Positions 1-37,838 of a DNA stretch of 37,838 nucleotides are shown here, in pieces. The translations under genes were made by a program, and so were the position numbers. Numbering within the stretch: the first letter of the stretch is position 1; each line of letters opens with the position of its first letter. A model generated the notes under the pieces. It did not search any database. It saw only the letters and a list, made by a program, of their open reading frames with translations, and was not told the origin of the DNA. The DNA is from a virus. The stretch spans positions 1-37,838 of the IMG/VR virus record IMGVR_UViG_3300045988_155539. One strand, 5' to 3'.

Positions 1-55
1 CGTGCTGACGCATGACCGGCGGCGAGGCATCGACAAGCTGCTCGCCGTCCTTTAA
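1..55. repeat. 55-bp terminal direct repeat, copy 1 (circular-contig overlap)
   Basis: cgtgctgacgcatgaccggcggcgaggcatcgacaagctgctcgccgtcctttaa at 1..55 is identical to 37784..37838. An ORF reads straight through the join. Confidence 0.9.
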
Positions 56-187
56 GGTGTAGTTCTGCACCTCCTCGACCTGCTCCGTGCCGCCGTCCTC
101 CAGCGGCTTATCGCGGATTTTTACGAGCACGTAAGTCACGTGCCTGCCCTCAGCGTCGATGACGCTGCAGTGCTTTTCAGTTTTCAT
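1..187 (-). CDS. XkdW-like tail-module protein, 5' part of a 143-aa gene that crosses the circular junction
   Basis: ATG at 187 reads MKTEKHCSVIDAEGRHVTYVLVKIRDKPLEDGGTEQVEEVQNYTLKDGEQLVDASPPV, then MRQHAG..., which is the ORF 37539..37796 (1..55 = 37784..37838). The W-rich segment, Pro-rich linker and coiled-coil C-half, and its position after the tail fibre, recall PBSX XkdW-type proteins. Confidence 0.6.
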   Translation of the reverse strand, partial: MKTEKHCSVIDAEGRHVTYVLVKIRDKPLEDGGTEQVEEVQNYTLKDGEQLVDASPPVMRQH

Positions 188-365
188 ACCTTCTCAGCTC
201 CTTTTCTACGTCTTTCAGTGCGTTATTCATACTTTTAATCTTCCCTGCGTTGTTACGCAGCCCCCGACGGAGGCCGTCGCGCGTTCCCAGCAACATACCT
301 AATGCGATAGGCGCAAAGGCTAATGTCGAGAGCGCAATCGCTTGCAGCCAGTCTCGTAAATCCAT
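177..365 (-). CDS. small single-pass membrane protein (62 aa)
   Basis: ATG 365 is preceded by GAAGGTGA. There is one hydrophobic helix (LQAIALSTLAFAPIALGMLLG) and a basic/coiled C-terminus. It lies directly outside crossover site S1. Confidence 0.55.
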   Translation of the reverse strand: MDLRDWLQAIALSTLAFAPIALGMLLGTRDGLRRGLRNNAGKIKSMNNALKDVEKELRRYEN

Positions 366-382
366 AAAATCACCTTCTTTCT

Positions 383-412
383 TTAAGGGCGCCTACGGCA
401 AAGCGCCTTAGG
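383..412 (+). repeat. putative recombinase crossover site S1
   Basis: ttaagggcgcctacggcaaagcgccttagg. The 19-nt core 387..405 is identical to the S3 core, 18/19 to S2 and 17/19 to S4 (inverted relative to S4). It is read in phase as L-R-A-P-T-A-K-R into cassette A. Confidence 0.7.
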
Positions 413-1577
413 TACGACGACAATCTGGGCCTCAAAATCAAGTTAAAAGCACATAAATCTCTTGAATATATGAGCTTTGATAGTGGAGAAGAGACTGACC
501 TTAATTATTCAGGCGGTTGCCTTGCCTTGCCCGGATGGAGATCGGGACCTTGGGGAATGCAAGTCCGATACGATATGCGTTGGAATACTTTGTTTACGAG
601 GCGATACTTTAACGAAGGATCTGAATGGGACGATTGGGTTAGACTCGCCACCTGCATGCCACCTGAGGTGCATGATCTGCCGCTCTACAATGGCTATACC
701 AATCTCGGCTGTAAATACTTCCGCACACAAGAGAATGTGGTTTCTTTTGCCGGAGAAATAGAGCGAAAGAGTGGCTTTCATCAGGATGAGGCCTTTGCGG
801 TACTGCCCGAGGGCTTTAGGCCGGATCATGCGATCGTCGTGCCGGCGCTACTTTATCCAAGTTTCACGCCAGCGTCAATTATCATTAAATCTAACGGTGA
901 GATTTGCGAAACGATAACAGCCAGTGACAAATCGCTTTATATGCAGGCGACTTTTGTCGCAAGTTAAACAGATGCTGGATATGTCAACTGGGCAAAAATA
1001 TATTCGGCGCTCGTAAATGAACCGCGGACATAAATATTGCCTCCAGGTTGAATGACGATTTGCCCTATCTGATAAGATATCGGAGCGTTCTGTATCAGCA
1101 GCGGTGTGACGACATCCCATACCGGCAGAAAACCCTCTGGTAATGTGCCGATTATTTTGTAGTCATTCCAATTAGCATTTAATTTTGTTCTAATACTTAC
1201 GTACACTCGTCCAAACTGATCTTTTGCATAATAACAGGTGCTATCATCGCCTGCAATATTTAAAGGCAACGAATGCACCTCTGGCGCAATGCACCGTGCA
1301 AGCTCATACCAGATATCGCGTGCCGGGATAGCATCATCTCCGGCACGTGCAAACCAAAAACGGCAATCTGAAGCGCCAAACCACAAATCGTAGCTGCCAG
1401 ACAGCGAAGAGCGTAGCTTAGCATACGCGGCGTATTCAGACGGCATATTTCCGTCCCAATCTGAGTCTGTTGTGCGGAATACCAAACTTTTACCGCGCGG
1501 AAAAGCACTTTTTGCGTTAATATCGCCTGCCAACGTAAGCGTTTCCTTCGCCAAGGGTCGCTTTGCCATAGCCGCCC
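387..1577. other. putative invertible segment 1 (expressed fibre tip D and silent cassette A between inverted sites S4 and S1)
   Basis: Inverted 19-nt cores lie at 387..405 and 1559..1577. The two convergent homologous coding regions have stop codons overlapping in TTAA at 964..967. Confidence 0.65.
470..967 (+). CDS. silent tail-fibre C-terminal cassette A (promoterless, RBS-less alternative receptor-binding tip)
   Basis: The frame is already open from 368 and is in phase with S1. There is no SD before ATG 470. It shares with the tail-fibre C-terminus the skeleton W..W.., PPEVHDLPL, YFRTQENVVSF and LPEGFRP. GC is visibly lower than the flanks. Confidence 0.75.
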   Translation: MSFDSGEETDLNYSGGCLALPGWRSGPWGMQVRYDMRWNTLFTRRYFNEGSEWDDWVRLATCMPPEVHDLPLYNGYTNLGCKYFRTQENVVSFAGEIERKSGFHQDEAFAVLPEGFRPDHAIVVPALLYPSFTPASIIIKSNGEICETITASDKSLYMQATFVAS

Positions 1578-2439
1578 TTAAGTTCTCCGCATCATCGGCT
1601 CCCATAGCAATGTCATCGCCCGTCAGCGTCACATCCGCGCTCAGCGTCTTCCCGTTGATTTTCCGCGCCAGCGGAACGAACAGCTTACCGAGCGCCCTCT
1701 TAACGCTCGACCACAGCAGCCGCTTTGCCTTGCCGCCGTCCACGCTGTCCGCGATCATCACGCCGTCCGCGTCGGCAGGTGCGGCCTTGGCGGTGATCTT
1801 GGTCGGGTCGATGGCATCGAGAGCGTTGTTGATCTGCCGCAGATCGTCCGCGCCCGCGCCGTCCATGCCCTTCTGCGCGATCAGCAGCCAGTACGCGGTA
1901 TCGGTCGGCTCGTGTCCGATCGTCGCCGCCGTGCACACATAAGACGAGCCGCCAAAGCTGACCTTGTTGCCGGGAACGTAGGTCTTTGCGGCGTCATATG
2001 TCTGCCAGACGTTCCGTGCGGTCTCCGCAGAAACCCGGCTTTTCTCCGCCGAGTCGCGTTTGTTCTCCGCATTCACGCGCGCCGTCTCTGCCGCGATCCT
2101 CGCGTTCTCATCCGCAACGCGCCGCGACTCCGCCGACAGTCTCGTTTTCTCGCTCTGAACGCGCTGACCTTCCGCGCTCACGCGCCCCTGCTCGGCCGTC
2201 TGCCGGGCGTTCTCCTGCTGCACGCGCTGCGCTTCCTCGGCGGACCAGTTGTCCGCGGACTCTTCCATCTGCGCGAAGACCTCTACAATCGCATTAAACT
2301 GCGGCGCGACGACCTCGCGCGTAAACTTCTCAAGCGATTTCTTGTTCTCGTAAGGCGTTCCGTTCAGAGTATCAGGCAGCGAGGTCATGCCCTTCTCGTT
2401 GAACTGCTCGTCTGTGATCTTGTAATCACGAATACTCAT
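964..2439 (-). CDS. tail fibre (constant aa 1-294 plus currently expressed variable tip D, aa 295-491)
   Basis: ATG 2439 overlaps the upstream stop (TAATG). The N-terminal region carries a repetitive coiled coil (ENARQTAEQGRVSAE.. RVADENARIAAETARVNAENKR..). A CBM5/12-like motif is present (YVPGNKVSFGGSSYVCTAATIGHEPTDTAYW). The C-terminal tip carries APEVHSLPL and LPEGFLP. Confidence 0.85.
   Translation of the reverse strand: MSIRDYKITDEQFNEKGMTSLPDTLNGTPYENKKSLEKFTREVVAPQFNAIVEVFAQMEESADNWSAEEAQRVQQENARQTAEQGRVSAEGQRVQSEKTRLSAESRRVADENARIAAETARVNAENKRDSAEKSRVSAETARNVWQTYDAAKTYVPGNKVSFGGSSYVCTAATIGHEPTDTAYWLLIAQKGMDGAGADDLRQINNALDAIDPTKITAKAAPADADGVMIADSVDGGKAKRLLWSSVKRALGKLFVPLARKINGKTLSADVTLTGDDIAMGADDAENLRAAMAKRPLAKETLTLAGDINAKSAFPRGKSLVFRTTDSDWDGNMPSEYAAYAKLRSSLSGSYDLWFGASDCRFWFARAGDDAIPARDIWYELARCIAPEVHSLPLNIAGDDSTCYYAKDQFGRVYVSIRTKLNANWNDYKIIGTLPEGFLPVWDVVTPLLIQNAPISYQIGQIVIQPGGNIYVRGSFTSAEYIFAQLTYPASV
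1551..1581 (-). repeat. putative recombinase crossover site S4, inside the tail-fibre gene
   Basis: Minus strand reads ttaagggcggctatggcaaagcgacccttgg, with the core at 1559..1577. It encodes LRAAMAKR (aa 287-294) at the constant/variable boundary. Confidence 0.7.
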
Positions 2440-12633: not shown

Positions 12634-13224
12634 TCAGTTATTTGGTTTTGCAATGAATTCCCGCTCGTACTCCTTCAGCAGCCTGTCCAGCGTCGGACGG
12701 CTGACACCGTTTTCCCGCGCGAGCGTCGCCTTGCTCTTGTGCCGCGTCACCCAGTCGTGATACACAGCCGCCATGTCCTCGATAACGGTTTTCTTGCGTC
12801 CCTTGTATGCGCCGTTGCGCTTTGCGATAGCGATACCTTCCCTCTGGCGTTCCAGCATGTTCTCACGTTCGAACTGGTTGATCGAGGCGAGGATCGTCAT
12901 CATCAGCCTTCCGTTCGGTGTCGAGGTGTCGATGTTCTCCTTGAGAGAGAAAAGCGTAATGCCGCGCGCCTTCAGGTTCTCAGTCAGCTCAAGCAGATCT
13001 TTCGTGCTGCGACTAATGCGGCTCCAGTCCATGATGTAGATCGTGTCCCCCTCTCGTGCGTAGTCCAGCATCTCCTTGAGCTTCGGCCGGTTCATATCCT
13101 TGCCGCTGATCTTCTCGATGAACCACTTGTCGATGTCATACTTTTCAAGCGCTTCCACCTGCCGCGCCTCGTTCTGTTCCTCGGTCGATACACGCACATA
13201 CGCGAGTTTTGCCCCGTTTGCCAT
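12634..13224 (-). CDS. small serine recombinase (resolvase/invertase family, 196 aa)
   Basis: ATG 13224 has an AAGGAG SD. The N-terminus carries the AYVRVSTEEQ catalytic-Ser motif. Later motifs include DWSRISRS and GRLMMTILASINQFERE..ERQREGI, and there is a C-terminal HTH. Confidence 0.85.
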   Translation of the reverse strand: MANGAKLAYVRVSTEEQNEARQVEALEKYDIDKWFIEKISGKDMNRPKLKEMLDYAREGDTIYIMDWSRISRSTKDLLELTENLKARGITLFSLKENIDTSTPNGRLMMTILASINQFERENMLERQREGIAIAKRNGAYKGRKKTVIEDMAAVYHDWVTRHKSKATLARENGVSRPTLDRLLKEYEREFIAKPNN

Positions 13225-13403
13225 TTTATCCACTCCTTGTTGATGTTTTGTAAAGTTGAACTCTTGACTTTGCTTTACACATGTAAAACAAAGCGAAAAA
13301 CCATGCTATTTTTACGTTTTTCGGTACTCCTGCACACCTGCTCATTAGGGCATGTCCTATTTTTACATCAGAGGGCGCAGCAAAGCGGACGGGTGACACA
13401 TCG

Positions 13404-23614: not shown

Positions 23615-25156
23615 ATGCAAACCGAATACGCCCTCTATCTCCGCAAATCCCGCGCGGACCTCGAAGCCGAGGCGCACGGCGAGGGCGATACCCTCGCCCG
23701 GCACGAGCACATTCTGATGGAGCTTGCCAAGTCCCGCGCCCTGCCCATCGGCGCGATCTACCGCGAGATCGTCTCCGGTGAGCGCATCGCGAACCGTCCC
23801 GTCATGCGGCGGCTGCTCTCCGAGGTGGAGGACGGCCGCTGGAAGGGCGTGCTCGTCACCGAAACCTCGCGTCTGGCGCGCGGCGATACGATAGATCAAG
23901 GCATTGTCGCCCAGGCGTTCAAACTCTCGGGCACACTGATCGTCACCCCGTCCAAGATCTACGACCCCACGCAGGAAGCGGACGAGGAATGGATGGAATT
24001 CGGCCTGTTCATGTCGCGTCAGGAGTACCGCATGATCCGCCGCCGTATGACCGCCGGCATGAATGCAGCCAAGCGTGAAGGACGCTTTATCGGCAACGTC
24101 GCGCCCTATGGCTACGAGCGTTTTAAGCTGGACGGCCGCGGCTGGTCTCTGCGTATCGTGCCAGAGCAGGCCGAAATCGTGCGCATGATTTTTGATCTTT
24201 ATAACTCAGGTCTCGGATATTGCAGAATTGAAAAGCGCCTGAATGAGCTGCACGTTCCGGCTCCAAAGGGTGAAAAATGGACATCTGCCACGATCCCCGG
24301 TATAATTCAAAACCCCCACTACATCGGCATGATCCCGGCAGGCCGCCGCCCCGGAAGGAAGGTCGTAAAAGATGGCGAGGTGAAGCTGATACGTCCGCGC
24401 CAGAAATGCGAGCTGTACCCCGGGATGCACGAACCGATCATCTCGCGCGAGACCTGGGATAAAGCGCAGGCACGCATCGGCAAAAACCATGAAGCAAGAG
24501 TGCCGGCAGGCCGCAGGCAGAGCAACCCTCTCGCCGGTCTGCTTGTCTGCGACTGCTGCGGCAAGAACATGCAGCGCCGACCGCAAACCAGCAGAGGAAG
24601 TCAGACGCAAATCCTTTGTCCGACGCGCGGCTGTCCGACCGTTGCGCACAACGCAGACGAGCTCGAGGATATGGTTATTGATTCTCTGCGCGTATTCCTC
24701 GCGAAGCTCGAGGCAGGAAAGCCTGCAAAAACAGATGTTTCCGCGGAATATGCCGCACTCGAAGAATGCATGAAAAAGCTGAAGGACCTCGAAGCGCGTC
24801 AGCGCCGAACGTTTGAACTCGTCGAGGACGGCACATATACGCGGGAGATCTTCCTCGCGCGCCAGGCAGAACTCACCGCCGAGCGCGTGAAGATTGAGCA
24901 GCAGAAAGCAGAGCTCGAGGAGGCAATCGCAAAGAAGAAGCAGGAAGCCGAAGCACAGAACAGCCTCGCCCCTGCCGCACGTCAGGTCCTCGAGGCGTAC
25001 AAAAAAGATATGTCCGCCGAAGATCGAAACCGCCTGCTCAAGAAGGTCATCGACCATATCGACTATCACAAAAGAAAAAGAACCAGATGGAACCCCGAAA
25101 GCGACCTCTCAATAACCCTGCACCCGGTCGTCACTTCTTCAAACCCTCACCGATAA
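23615..25156 (+). CDS. large serine recombinase (probable lysogeny integrase)
   Basis: 513 aa with an AAAGGAGGAAA SD. The N-terminal YLRKSR catalytic-Ser region is followed by a recombinase domain (YGYER..., IVRMIFDLY), a Cys zinc-ribbon (VCDCCGKNM...CPTRGC) and a coiled coil. It is adjacent to the immunity genes. Confidence 0.85.
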   Translation: MQTEYALYLRKSRADLEAEAHGEGDTLARHEHILMELAKSRALPIGAIYREIVSGERIANRPVMRRLLSEVEDGRWKGVLVTETSRLARGDTIDQGIVAQAFKLSGTLIVTPSKIYDPTQEADEEWMEFGLFMSRQEYRMIRRRMTAGMNAAKREGRFIGNVAPYGYERFKLDGRGWSLRIVPEQAEIVRMIFDLYNSGLGYCRIEKRLNELHVPAPKGEKWTSATIPGIIQNPHYIGMIPAGRRPGRKVVKDGEVKLIRPRQKCELYPGMHEPIISRETWDKAQARIGKNHEARVPAGRRQSNPLAGLLVCDCCGKNMQRRPQTSRGSQTQILCPTRGCPTVAHNADELEDMVIDSLRVFLAKLEAGKPAKTDVSAEYAALEECMKKLKDLEARQRRTFELVEDGTYTREIFLARQAELTAERVKIEQQKAELEEAIAKKKQEAEAQNSLAPAARQVLEAYKKDMSAEDRNRLLKKVIDHIDYHKRKRTRWNPESDLSITLHPVVTSSNPHR

Positions 25157-35057: not shown

Positions 35058-36023
35058 TTACGCGATAACGCGATTATATTCGTACTGTACGCGGATTGGA
35101 TTGATCTCCGCATAGATGAGCGTCGTTTTCGGGTCGGTATGCCCCAAAAGGTGCTGTATTACCGTGAGGTCCATACCGGCGCTCAGCGCATGCGACGCGA
35201 AGGTGTGCCTCATGAGATGCGGATACAGCGGCCGCTCCATGCCGATGCGCTTGCCCAGCTTAGAGATAATCTTTTCGATACCTCTATCTGACAGCGGTTC
35301 GTAGGGCGCACGGCTGCTGGAGAAGAGCGCCTCTCCTCCCTTGCGGCCTTCGATGTACAGCTGCAGCATGAGCTTGGCCCTCACCGAGAAATACACTGTC
35401 CGCTGTTTGCCACCCTTGCCGATCACCTTGCACTTGCGCTCCTGCCAGTCGATGTCCTGCACACGCAGTCCGGCGACCTCAGACACACGACAGCCGGACG
35501 AGACCAGAAATTCGACCAAAGCCTTTTCCTTGTAGCCCTTGCACCCATCGCGGATGAGCTCCAACTGCTCGGCCGTCAGCGGATGCCGGGCACGCAGCTT
35601 GTCGATACGCAGCGACTTGATCTTGCGCATTGGGTTCTTTCGGATCGCGTCCTCATCCGTCAGCCACTGGAAGAAGCTCCGCAGGCAGTTGATGTGCGCT
35701 TGCACCGAGTTGTCTTTGAGATGCCGCTCGTCCACGAGGTACGCGATATGCTCGCGCAGGTCGTCGGTCGAGATTTTCTGAACCGGCTTTTTTATCCGCG
35801 CAATCAACACCCTCAGCCGCTCACGGTAGCCCTCCAGCGTCTTCGGCCGGCAGCCGTCGATGCGCTTCGCCGCCAGGAAAGCGTCAACACGCCTCGGCAG
35901 GTTGCTCCGCTCATACACCTTGGCAGGCATAATCTCGTAGTCATGCAAGATTTTCGCGATCTCGCCCGCACATTCGGGCATTAAAGCGGTAAGTTTAGCT
36001 AACAGGTCCATTTTTGCAGTCAT
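35058..36023 (-). CDS. Xer-like tyrosine recombinase (candidate shufflon invertase)
   Basis: ATG 36023 lies 10 nt after AAAGGAG. A complete catalytic set can be read: R (SSGCRVSEV), K (GKGGKQRTV), HxxR (HLMRHTF), H (LLGHTD), Y (TLIYAE). It has a simple two-domain ~320-aa architecture. Its start is 44 nt from the S2 core. Confidence 0.85.
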   Translation of the reverse strand: MTAKMDLLAKLTALMPECAGEIAKILHDYEIMPAKVYERSNLPRRVDAFLAAKRIDGCRPKTLEGYRERLRVLIARIKKPVQKISTDDLREHIAYLVDERHLKDNSVQAHINCLRSFFQWLTDEDAIRKNPMRKIKSLRIDKLRARHPLTAEQLELIRDGCKGYKEKALVEFLVSSGCRVSEVAGLRVQDIDWQERKCKVIGKGGKQRTVYFSVRAKLMLQLYIEGRKGGEALFSSSRAPYEPLSDRGIEKIISKLGKRIGMERPLYPHLMRHTFASHALSAGMDLTVIQHLLGHTDPKTTLIYAEINPIRVQYEYNRVIA

Positions 36024-36062
36024 GGCGCACACACTCCTTTGCCATCATTGTAACATGATATT

Positions 36063-36093
36063 GCACGGGCGCCTATGGCAAAGCGACTCAAGG
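36063..36093 (+). repeat. putative recombinase crossover site S2
   Basis: gcacgggcgcctatggcaaagcgactcaagg, with the core at 36067..36085. It is read as A-R-A-P-M-A-K-R into cassette C; the ATG of the ORF-track call lies inside the core. Confidence 0.7.
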
Positions 36094-36701
36094 ACTGCGG
36101 CGAGTTATCGGGTCAAAACGACGCTGATGTGCTCACAGAACCCGGCTTTTATCGGGGAGGAGACACGTCGAAAATGTTGCTGCACGCCCCGATTTTCTCG
36201 TACGCATGGACTTTAGAAGTGCTTGCAAATTCAGCATGGAACGTCGGAGTGACACAGCGGTTTATCGACTACGAGACCCGACGCATGTACATCCGCTCTA
36301 ATCACCCTATCGAAAGCGGCTGGGTGTGGTATGACTGGGTTGAGGTTGCACAATGCAAAACGCCCGACTACCATGCATTGTCACTTGCCGATGGAATACA
36401 AAGTCATGGTACTGCGGTGTACTGGAAGGACCAATTTAATGTTGTGTCCATAATCTTTGATTATGGATCTAAAAAAAGCGGTTCGTTTATCCCAGACGAC
36501 TGGGAACTGCTTGCCACGCTGCCTGAGGGGTTTCGACCATATGGCGACAACTGGCGTATGTGCGATGACTCGGAAAGCGGCAGCGCCGTTGCGACCTGTC
36601 GTGTCAGCGCAAATGGTGAACTGCGGTATCGTGCGTCAACTCAGTCGCAGCACCTAAATCTTTTTGGGCATATCTACATCACGTACATCGCCATGAATTA
36701 A
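36075..36701 (+). CDS. silent tail-fibre C-terminal cassette C
   Basis: No SD is present. The frame is in phase with S2. It is homologous to the fibre tip (W.WYDWVEVAQCKTPDYHALSL, VYWKDQFNVVS, LPEGFRP). Confidence 0.75.
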   Translation: MAKRLKDCGELSGQNDADVLTEPGFYRGGDTSKMLLHAPIFSYAWTLEVLANSAWNVGVTQRFIDYETRRMYIRSNHPIESGWVWYDWVEVAQCKTPDYHALSLADGIQSHGTAVYWKDQFNVVSIIFDYGSKKSGSFIPDDWELLATLPEGFRPYGDNWRMCDDSESGSAVATCRVSANGELRYRASTQSQHLNLFGHIYITYIAMN

Positions 36702-37234
36702 GTGCATGGGAAAGAAATATTCAGATACACATAGGCAACCCCCGAGGTAGCAATAATCACGGTAACATTACCGCCTGTAGTGACCGAGCAACGTACTCCT
36801 ACACCATAAGACGCCGTTACAGGCAGTTCCAACGCATGTGCAGAGTGGAAACCCTCCGGTAAATACCCGATAGAGATGTAACTATCTTTAGCGAAGGTCC
36901 CGTAAATGCAGCCGGACACAGTGCATATGTTCTCTTGCGTTTTATAGTAGATAATGTCGCCAGTAAAGCCGTCCGCCAAAGGGAAATTATGCACTTCTGG
37001 AATATTCGCCGATACGATTTTCTGCCAGTCAGCTACCCACCCATTCGAGTCTGCAAAGCGTACATATCCTACATCTGGAATACTGGGGTAGGATCGCAAT
37101 GCATAGGCGACATAGTGTTCTCCATGAAAAAAGAATACATTGTAGCCCCAGTCTTTTTCGCCATTTGGAATATCGGGACAGTTAATAGCATGGATAAAAC
37201 CTGCATGATGACCGGCATTGTTCTCACTTTTCAT
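36698..37234 (-). CDS. silent tail-fibre C-terminal cassette B
   Basis: The frame is open from 37312 and in phase with S3. There is no SD before ATG 37234. It is homologous to the fibre tip (WVADWQKIVSANIPEVHNFPL, IYYKTQENICTVS, LPEGFHS). Confidence 0.75.
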   Translation of the reverse strand: MKSENNAGHHAGFIHAINCPDIPNGEKDWGYNVFFFHGEHYVAYALRSYPSIPDVGYVRFADSNGWVADWQKIVSANIPEVHNFPLADGFTGDIIYYKTQENICTVSGCIYGTFAKDSYISIGYLPEGFHSAHALELPVTASYGVGVRCSVTTGGNVTVIIATSGVAYVYLNISFPCT

Positions 37235-37275
37235 GTAGTCGAAAATAGATGTTCCGGCCAGATACTTAGCCCGGC

Positions 37276-37306
37276 TTCCAAGGCGCTTTGCCGTAGGCGC
37301 CCGTGC
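37276..37306 (-). repeat. putative recombinase crossover site S3
   Basis: Minus strand reads gcacgggcgcctacggcaaagcgccttggaa, with the core at 37284..37302. It begins 6 nt after the stop of the 55-aa gene and is read as A-R-A-P-T-A-K-R into cassette B. Confidence 0.7.
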
Positions 37307-37312
37307 AGCCGT

Positions 37313-37480
37313 TTACGCGGCCGCTACGTCCTTCGTACCGCCGAACTCGGCCGGCACCATCTCCGGCAGGCCGCACTCGTCGATCAGGATCTCCGCCACC
37401 TGCTTCTGGAGCTTTGCGGGAACCTTTTCAAACTCACATTTGCCGAGAATAACTCTCTGCGAAAATAACATAGCCATCAT
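37313..37480 (-). CDS. XkdX/CD1375-like small tail-module protein (55 aa)
   Basis: ATGATG at 37480 has an AAGGAGAA SD. MMAMLFSQRVILGKCEFEKVPAKLQKQVAEILIDECGLPEMVP resembles the small proteins that follow tail fibres in Firmicutes phages. The Arg-rich N-terminal extension of the ORF-track call is rejected. Confidence 0.55.
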   Translation of the reverse strand: MMAMLFSQRVILGKCEFEKVPAKLQKQVAEILIDECGLPEMVPAEFGGTKDVAAA

Positions 37481-37538
37481 TTCTAGTTCTCCTTCTGATA
37501 ATAAAATGTAGATTTTTAAGGTGATTTCCGCCAACAAC

Positions 37539-37838
37539 TTACGCATAGACGATTTCCGCCATTTCAGCAATGCAGTCCTCATAAAAGGACTGCTGGTCGG
37601 CCAGCGCCGACACCTGCTGCTTGAGCTTAGCGTTCTCGCTTTCCAGTTCTGCGTTGGTTTTCGGTGCCGGCTTGATCTCCGGCGCCGGGTGCTCCTGCTC
37701 CCACGCCGCGATCTCGTCGGCCGTGGCGGTCTCCTGCCAGTCCGAGCCGCCCCAGATCGGCGAGAGAAAGCCGGTGCTGCCGGCGTGCTGACGCATGACC
37801 GGCGGCGAGGCATCGACAAGCTGCTCGCCGTCCTTTAA
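37539..37838 (-). CDS. XkdW-like protein, 3' part of the junction-spanning gene
   Basis: The frame is open to the window end and continues from 187..56 through the 55-nt overlap. It ends ...ELESENAKLKQQVSALADQQSFYEDCIAEMAEIVYA. Confidence 0.6.
   Translation of the reverse strand, partial: LKDGEQLVDASPPVMRQHAGSTGFLSPIWGGSDWQETATADEIAAWEQEHPAPEIKPAPKTNAELESENAKLKQQVSALADQQSFYEDCIAEMAEIVYA
37784..37838. repeat. 55-bp terminal direct repeat, copy 2 (circular-contig overlap)
   Basis: Exact copy of 1..55 at the window end. Confidence 0.9.

Follow-up and report, generated by a model that had tools for sequence, protein, structure and literature searches.

A probable four-site tail-fibre shufflon beside an Xer-like tyrosine recombinase in a likely Bacillota phage

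IMG/VR virus record IMGVR_UViG_3300045988_155539 is a viral DNA of 37,838 nucleotides (nt), and its full length, positions 1 to 37,838, is referred to as the window. The locus formed by positions 35058-37312 and the tail-fibre gene at the window start is probably a multiple-inversion system (shufflon) that exchanges the receptor-binding tip of the fibre, with the adjacent Xer-like tyrosine recombinase as the invertase. This reading is built on sequence comparison between the window and its relatives. The first 55 bp of the window recur as a direct repeat at its end, giving a circular assembly of ~37.8 kb, and the region 35058-37312 and the fibre gene are therefore neighbours. Across the window ends, the two cassette pairs lie 867 bp apart, and the whole switch, from 36067 to 1577, measures 3.3 kb. 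The order is the constant part of the fibre gene, a site, tips A (type c11) and D (c26), a site, the spacer, a site, tips B (c7) and C (c14), a site, the recombinase, and the holin. The parts of the proposed switch are:

35058..36023, minus strand: Xer-like tyrosine recombinase, 321 residues, SAM-like core-binding and catalytic domains; proposed invertase
36067..36085, plus strand: S2 core, GGGCGCCTATGGCAAAGCG; adjoins the recombinase gene and precedes cassette C
36078..36701, plus strand: cassette C, 207 residues from A-K-R to stop, tip type c14; silent
36698..37291, minus strand: cassette B, 197 residues, tip type c7; silent, tail-to-tail with C
37284..37302, minus strand: S3 core, GGGCGCCTACGGCAAAGCG; precedes cassette B
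387..405, plus strand: S1 core, GGGCGCCTACGGCAAAGCG; precedes cassette D
398..967, plus strand: cassette D, 189 residues, tip type c26; silent
964..1566, minus strand: cassette A, 200 residues, tip type c11; the tip now fused and expressed
1559..1577, minus strand: S4 core, GGGCGGCTATGGCAAAGCG; within the fibre gene, codons R-A-A-M-A-K-R; the expression site
1567..2439, minus strand: constant N-terminal part of the fibre gene, 291 residues before A-K-R

The fibre gene encodes 491 residues, runs from 2439 down to 964, and follows a gene that matches a PHROG 'virion structural protein' family. The last ~90 residues of its constant part are an adapter common to myovirus-type relatives. All four cassettes are open from core to stop in the same frame, and the core is read as A-K-R in each. 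As called, the open reading frames (ORFs) of the two distal cassettes are 36075..36701 on the plus strand (C, 208 residues) and 36698..37234 on the minus strand (B, 178 residues). The pairs A/D and C/B are tail-to-tail, with stops that overlap in TTAA (964-967 and 36698-36701). Fusion to the constant part is predicted to give proteins of 498 (C), 488 (B), and 480 (D) residues. The internal ATGs at 36075 (C) and 37234 (B) have no AGGAGG-like motif in front of them. Scans for consensus promoters and terminators near the two cassette pairs did not exceed the shuffled background, a result that has no bearing on expression of the spacer genes or the recombinase. The first-pass annotation, made from the window alone, had described the coordinates of B and C, their tail-to-tail layout and TTAA overlap, the frames open to the site with the A-K-R reading, the lack of a Shine-Dalgarno motif, and fusions of 498 and 488 residues; each of these was recovered on recomputation. 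In the related loci, too, convergent cassettes nearly always overlap at the 3' end: 44 pairs share TTAA stops, 33 overlap by 16 nt, and only 2 are gapped.

The crossover site was located with the pattern GGGCGCCTAYGGCAAAGCG, allowing ≤3 mismatches. Exactly four 19-bp cores occur in the window, where 0.05 are expected by chance, and none of 100 shuffles reaches four. The core consensus is GGGCG(C/G)CTA(C/T)GGCAAAGCG. S1 and S3 are identical in sequence, S2 is one base off, and S4 is two bases off, in agreement with the earlier placement of S2 and S3 and with the claim that S3 equals S1. The four cores alternate in orientation and bound three invertible segments, namely A/D, the spacer, and B/C. 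The core is asymmetric, with no internal dyad symmetry.

Comparison of 190 related sites shows 17 of the 19 core positions to be almost invariant, with variable sequence on either side. At S1, S2, and S3 the left half of the core does not code for protein, and it is nevertheless as strictly conserved as the coding copy; the core is therefore more than a conserved peptide linker. The core beside the constant part has G6/T10 in 60 of 60 cases, regardless of the tip, and other sites mostly have C6/C10. The same tip types carry C6/C10 when they are sited away from the constant part. Since G6/T10 tracks the constant part, positions 1-10 keep to the outer flank. Identity to a given tip type starts at position 20, and exchange is therefore placed within positions 11-19, GGCAAAGCG. 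This stretch could plausibly hold the 6-8-bp overlap region that is typical of a tyrosine recombinase. Two incompatible site classes, suggested by the outer flanks TTAA and GCAC that are alike within pairs, were considered and rejected, as the relatives break that pattern.

The recombinase ORF spans 35058..36032. Its likely start is the ATG at 36023, with AAGGAG 10 nt upstream, and gene callers agree on this start in the relatives. This start and S2 are 44 nt apart. In the protein, a SAM-like core-binding domain at the N-terminus is followed by a catalytic domain of the Phage_integrase type (E 1e-35); there is no arm-binding domain, and the alignment with XerD and XerA covers the full length. 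All six catalytic residues aligned to XerD R148, K172, H244, R247, H270, and Y279 are present, as expected from the earlier description of a complete RKHRHY enzyme 44 nt from S2. The best curated NCBIfam family is XerA/integron-integrase, at 210 bits versus a cut-off of 220. Neither equivalog cut-off is reached, with XerC at 178 versus 335 and XerD at 167 versus 330. The family searches gave no match to an Rci-type family, the top-scoring ones being Xer-like. When the recombinase was searched against a plasmid collection, the matches listed carried generic Xer or integrase annotations only.

Sites and enzyme occur together. Twenty-two loci, from 17 distinct records, have at least two cassette-bearing sites and at least 2.2 kb of sequence on both sides, and in 21 of these a tyrosine recombinase lies ≤1.2 kb from the outermost site. 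Three siblings with the same backbone have no sites, and none has a tyrosine recombinase within the 6 kb past its fibre gene. The co-occurrence lends comparative support to the earlier proposal that the tyrosine enzyme is the invertase, and the window recombinase is presumably the catalyst of inversion in this phage.

The closest recombinases in isolated phages are 36-39% identical and belong to Clostridium phage phiCp-D and Terrisporobacter phage TPELB_ph1. Each is an Xer-like 'integrase' between the last tail gene and the holin (phiCp-D, L172, 4917-5894; TPELB_ph1, L173, 4896-5891), and TPELB_ph1 carries a second annotated integrase. No convincing inverted repeats or cassettes were seen in the recombinase regions of these two phages.

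In the proposed mechanism, the Xer-like tyrosine recombinase would pair any two inversely oriented S sites. Strand exchange inside the invariant GGCAAAGCG would then invert one segment or all three. By enumeration, the genome would have 16 isomers, and the fibre four versions with A, D, B, or C as the tip. A single S4×S2 inversion would bring C to the expression site, and B would reach it only after a prior S2×S3 inversion. Tips D, B, and C, having neither a promoter nor a ribosome-binding site, would stay silent until fused. Exchange of tips presumably changes the host range.

Approximately 170 related loci were gathered from IMG/VR, human-gut metagenomes, and GTDB genomes, and are numbered here with the prefix L. 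Clustering of 171 complete post-core cassettes at 85% amino acid identity gave 41 tip types. The hypothetical constant-C and constant-B junction proteins were searched against a collection of 5.8 billion proteins, and both matched full-length genes at 98-100% query coverage and 89-93% identity. L170 is a 35.4-kb sibling with 83-96% nucleotide identity and the gene order of the window. It has the constant part, a site, and then a C-type tip (95% amino acid identity), called as the 490-residue protein P0004, and its nucleotide match to the window jumps from 1557 to 36067 inside the core. L166 has the constant part, a site, C (97.6%) and B (94.4%), and a site, with a 466-residue gene. L167, L168, and L169 have the constant part, a site, and B (95%), with a 456-residue gene. 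Because full-length constant-C and constant-B genes occur in relatives, B and C are working fibre tips elsewhere.

Whole segments are also found inverted. L095 is arranged as spacer (inverted), site, D, A, site, recombinase, and is 97.4% identical to the A/D segment of the window over 1215 bp. This layout is the exact predicted product of one S4×S2 inversion. L087 has the constant part and the recombinase on one contig, both forward, with the spacer inverted. Relative to the recombinase, an inverted spacer is also seen in six more contigs, including L083, L113, L137, L124, and L126. Five cassette pairs occur in both orientations with respect to the constant part (c8/c12, c2/c3, c5/c15, c5/c13, and c1/c4), and tip types c1 and c2 each occupy all four positions. 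Taken across genomes, these arrangements indicate that the two segments exchange on evolutionary time-scales. The L170 and L166-L169 fusions, L095, and L087 give comparative support to the first-pass annotation's view of B/C and A/D as one four-site shufflon. Switching may also take place within a population of the window phage.

Several relatives are harder to read. L044 joins a constant-type core to B; it was set aside as an unproven fusion, as its outer flank is the spacer rather than the constant part. In L076 1648-5619, on the same contig as L009, an inverted constant-part fragment follows the cassette pair at the second site. It is followed by a second, different set of tail genes on the opposite strand, with no recombinase within ~9 kb. 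A fold-back assembly artefact was suspected, but the arms share only ~100 bp at 75% identity. The contig is either a chimeric assembly across an invertible segment or a real arrangement. Several contigs end just 14-46 codons into the post-site cassette.

The four tips are mutually 30-35% identical and share the motifs PEVHxLPL and LPEGFxP. Among relatives, the ratio of nonsynonymous to synonymous substitution rates (dN/dS) is 0.06-0.15 for C and 0.37-0.62 for B, and no relative has a frameshift. These values indicate purifying selection on B and C and exclude the possibility, raised earlier, that they are decaying pseudogenes. Structure prediction had also been suggested, and was carried out for C. 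The AlphaFold model, built on an alignment of 50 relatives, is an all-beta domain with a mean predicted local distance difference test score of 82. Among solved structures it best matches receptor-binding heads, namely those of the lactococcal phages p2 and TP901-1 and gp15 of Listeria phage PSA, with a probability of 1.0 and a root-mean-square deviation of 3.3-3.8 Å over ~120 residues, at E-values of only ~2e-3. A library of viral models returned baseplate and receptor-binding proteins. The tip of ~200 residues thus appears to have the fold of a p2/TP901-1-type receptor-binding head.

Two further recombinases are encoded in the window and enter the question of which enzyme inverts the segments:

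23615..25156, plus strand: large serine recombinase with Resolvase, Recombinase, and Zn_ribbon_recom domains
12634..13233, minus strand: small Hin/Gin-like serine recombinase, 199 residues, Resolvase domain E 3.5e-43

The large enzyme had already been called a serine integrase, its three domains bear this out, and it is likely the integrase and outside the switch. The first-pass annotation was right that the classical fibre switches use serine invertases but overlooked the small Hin-like gene; with that gene present, its absence could not be taken for granted, and a role as the invertase had to be ruled out. It sits among small helix-turn-helix (HTH) and replication-associated genes, beside the gene for a 180-residue HTH protein that precedes the terminase gene. 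Were it the invertase, the tyrosine enzyme would serve dimer resolution or integration. The Resolvase domain speaks for this assignment, as do the 40% identity to Hin over 122 residues (the Hin query was an approximate sequence) and the use of the Hin/Gin serine-invertase family by the classical switches of Mu, P1, and p15B. The assignment is nevertheless highly improbable. Homologues that are 97-99% identical lie on sibling contigs without sites or cassettes (L001, L002, L003, and L006), and a search with the serine enzyme returned none of the site-bearing IMG/VR contigs. The serine gene is ~11 kb from S4 and 14 kb from S3 across the window ends, whereas the tyrosine gene is 44 nt from a site. 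The core does not have the dyad symmetry of a serine-invertase site; hix/gix-like sites number 16 versus 10.6 expected, which is no enrichment, and none flanks a cassette. No inverted-repeat pair was found near 12634..13233. Myovirus-type relatives have the sites and the tyrosine recombinase on an unrelated backbone.

The repeats could instead be the coding linker of duplicated tip genes, permuted by homologous recombination, with the tyrosine enzyme a nearby integrase or Xer-type resolvase. Cassette partners do re-assort (c7 with c14 or c6; c11 with c26 or c6), cassettes are mosaic in their N-terminal linkers and C-terminal strands, and three near-identical assemblies have one arrangement. 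This explanation is unlikely, as a linker does not account for the conserved left half-core at the non-coding sites, for breakpoints inside the core, or for a constant-side G6/T10 that never travels with the tip. The whole-segment inversions, which include the gene-carrying spacer, match the prediction of site-specific recombination. Gain and loss of the recombinase go with gain and loss of the sites, and the recombinase lies between cassettes and holin in the Agathobaculum hominis chromosome as well. A narrower version of inversion would allow only the local flips S1×S4 and S2×S3, with B/C a stranded remnant of a captured module that is barred from the expression site. The outer flanks are pairwise alike in the window, TTAA for S1/S4 and GCAC for S2/S3, and searches for this exact phage yielded neither a constant-B nor a constant-C junction. 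In relatives, however, the flank follows location, being GTAG or TTAA on the constant side and GCAC or GATA on the recombinase side. L095, L087, and L170 show exchange between the two segments, and B and C are intact and under purifying selection, so that a barrier of this kind is quite improbable. The tyrosine-recombinase shufflon remains the preferred reading.

Several observations weigh against that reading. L174 (100%) and L175 (99.9%) are the same phage from two other samples and share the window arrangement, and the rearranged relatives are all at least 3-7% diverged in nucleotides. Source samples of this phage include ENA ERZ28576946 / SAMEA4545450 and ERZ19693079. Inversion within one phage population is predicted from relatives, and a search of IMG/VR for the exact constant|C junction pattern gave no matches. 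Homologous recombination is evidently active as well, since cassettes change partners and tips combine shared N-terminal linkers and C-terminal strands in mosaic fashion; some permutations could therefore arise without the recombinase. The recombinase falls just below the cut-off of its best family and is claimed by no invertase family, and the genome offers a second candidate enzyme in the Hin-like serine recombinase. Among two-site relatives, L112 (2379-4140) alone joins the constant-part type of this phage directly to C. Its core has an extra A (GGCAAAAGCG), a 414-residue IS110-like ORF lies upstream of a fibre-gene remnant, and L112 is probably a decaying prophage.

The spacer is 867 bp, is invertible between S3 and S1, and contains three complete small genes on the strand of the late operon:

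37303..37838, minus strand: spacer segment M, first part, with the 55-residue gene and the 3' part of the 143-residue ORF
37313-37480, minus strand: CD1375/XkdX-like gene, 55 residues, in the spacer
37539-37783 (3' part) and 187 down to 1 (5' part), minus strand: 143-residue ORF with a weak tail-fibre PHROG match
37784-37838: terminal repeat, the same as bases 1-55
1..386, minus strand: spacer segment M, second part, with the 5' part of the 143-residue ORF and the 62-residue gene
177-365, minus strand: 62-residue gene, in the spacer

The spacer is flipped in some relatives and wholly lacking in others, the two-site versions. The spacer genes are thus dispensable, or else they switch along with the tips. 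One possibility is that spacer flipping couples the choice of tip to on/off expression of these three genes.

The window backbone is podovirus-like, with a short gene set, a P22-like portal, and a 2454-residue M23-peptidase protein. The other backbone that carries the module in relatives is P2-like and of myovirus type, with tube, tape measure, gpU, gp25, Baseplate_J, and Tail_P2_I. The same module, including the B and C tips (94-98% amino acid identity), is found on both. The chromosome of the cultured lysogen Agathobaculum hominis M2 (NZ_JACOPK010000004), which has two sites, carries a copy of the cassette-recombinase-lysis region, with the recombinase 97% and the holin 100% identical in amino acids. 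There, the recombinase homologue lies between the cassettes and the holin/amidase genes. From this match, the host is likely a member of the Bacillota. The phage collection contains no close relative of the window phage, the sole match being the holin, at 66%, of Flavonifractor phage Castelnaud. To our knowledge, almost nothing is known of host choice by phages of strictly anaerobic gut Bacillota such as Agathobaculum, Butyricicoccus, and their relatives. A 2025 long-read study (PMC12823448) described a single prophage species integrated in Vescimonas, Negativibacillus, and Agathobaculum, and its authors raised inversions as one potential explanation of broad host range.

Other observations concern the same parts of the genome. 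The G+C content of the tip cassettes (406-1558 and 36086-37283) is 47-48.5%, that of the whole genome is 57.5%, and that of the fibre constant part is 61.7%; by this measure the tip pool looks compositionally foreign to the backbone. A copy of GGCAAAG, the invariant half of the core, at 36036-36045 (minus strand GGCAAAGGAG) overlaps the ribosome-binding site of the recombinase and could be an autoregulatory binding site or a chance occurrence. In L020 4371-5922, and also in L021, a diverged recombinase (54% identical) lies beside a different repeat, AGACCGCTATGACGGC, which codes for T-A-M-T-A. At least eight direct copies of this repeat occur in the 10-residue repeats of a 478-residue fibre-like gene, and one inverted copy precedes a silent cassette of 127 residues. 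This may be a second site family, where inversion would also vary the length of the fibre shaft. Fragments of ~60 residues from the recombinase C-terminus, 98-100% identical, are found beside the holin in L020 (7607-7783), L021 (6842-7018), and L146-L151. Phages with the fragment have no cassettes at that place, and the fragments look like deletion scars of a lost shufflon.

Systems of this kind have been published before. In the Rin shufflon of Bifidobacterium breve and B. longum prophages (Mavrich et al. 2018, PMC6109161), a tyrosine recombinase gene lies next to a constant gene for the receptor-binding protein and as many as five silent C-terminal cassettes, and an 11-bp rix repeat precedes each cassette. 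Its authors claimed the first phage-encoded invertase of the tyrosine family (PMC6109161). A Rin-type shufflon was later reported in Eggerthella lenta prophages (PMC8778435). A 2026 preprint (PMC13596623) describes a recombinase-flanked tail-fibre shufflon in BV01-like phages of Phocaeicola vulgatus, with all configurations present in reads. The first-pass annotation had considered a multi-cassette tyrosine-recombinase switch in a podovirus-like phage unusual. That overstated the novelty, given the Rin report, the Eggerthella prophages (PMC8778435), and the BV01-like shufflon (PMC13596623). A systematic survey also found tail-fibre genes among the common targets of programmed inversion, with tyrosine recombinases enriched nearby.

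The locus in the window and the Rin shufflon have much in common. Both are phage-encoded, with a tyrosine recombinase lacking an arm-binding domain that directly flanks the cassettes. Both have a constant N-terminal gene and silent, promoterless C-terminal cassettes joined in frame by the same short asymmetric repeat. Inversions occur at the repeats, here seen between related genomes. The Rin cassettes resemble the TP901-1 receptor-binding head, and the C model matches the p2/TP901-1 heads. Unlike in Rin, the core is 19 bp, and the 11-bp rix sequence TTCCCTAACCC is absent from the window at ≤1 mismatch. Rin has one contiguous cassette block between Rc and rin, whereas here two convergent pairs are split by the 867-bp invertible spacer. 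The Rin hosts are Actinomycetota and the likely host here belongs to the Bacillota. The Rin phages are siphovirus-like, as judged from tape-measure and Dit genes, and the backbones here are podovirus-like and P2-like myovirus. No Bifidobacterium records are among the phage-collection matches to the recombinase at E≤1e-20.

The BV01-like system, of a temperate gut phage, also has a recombinase-flanked multi-cassette region that overlaps a tail-fibre gene at its distal end, with short directional motifs between cassettes. Its motif is the 10-bp TGGGAGAACT, which is absent from the window, and its three non-homologous cassettes yield six isoforms through different stop positions. It rests on read-level evidence, unlike the comparative evidence used here. 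Set against these published systems, the locus in the window is distinct in its site, its likely Bacillota host, its split architecture, and its occurrence on two backbones. The literature search, over an incomplete library, did not turn up such a switch in any phage of a Clostridia-class host.

Other well-known switches differ further. In the R64/IncI shufflon, the tyrosine recombinase Rci acts on several inverted sfx sites, and segments invert singly or in groups, joining a constant N-terminus to alternative C-termini of the adhesin pilV. The sites are asymmetric with one-sided conservation, as they are here, where positions 1-19 are kept and the cassette side varies. Unlike the type IV conjugative-pilus adhesin on the R64 plasmid, the product here is a virion fibre. 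Relatives with two sites and no spacer hint that direct sites have undergone deletion or insertion here, a reaction that Rci avoids. Gin of Mu, Cin of P1, and Min of p15B are small serine invertases that use dyad-symmetric crossover sites and a Fis-dependent enhancer, and Min is multi-site. As proposed here, DNA inversion in these phages swaps the C-terminal part of a tail fibre to change the host range. Unlike in these systems, the enzyme adjacent to the cassettes is a tyrosine recombinase, the site is asymmetric and not of the gix/hix type, and the Hin-like gene is not co-distributed with the sites.

A broader reading of the whole is tentative. The locus could, though this is less likely than not, be a self-contained, horizontally mobile host-range module that combines integron-like exchange of tip pairs with a shared library of at least 41 heads. 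The module may comprise the ~90-residue adapter, the 19-bp sites, the tip pairs, the three small genes, and the Xer-like recombinase, and may move between unrelated virion architectures. Whole tip pairs would be gained and lost as circles between directly oriented sites, as in integrons, and gut Oscillospirales phages would pool at least 41 receptor-binding heads.

The known principle of such switches is unchanged. What the locus offers is directly testable: a site defined to 19 bp, an enzyme as the candidate invertase, and at least 41 catalogued receptor-binding heads that are interchangeable. For virome work, it accounts for assemblies of these phages that break or turn chimeric at this place. 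One module is present on two different virion types, and tyrosine-recombinase fibre shufflons, with their Actinomycetota examples and the recombinase-flanked BV01-like case of Bacteroidota, would extend to phages of the Bacillota.

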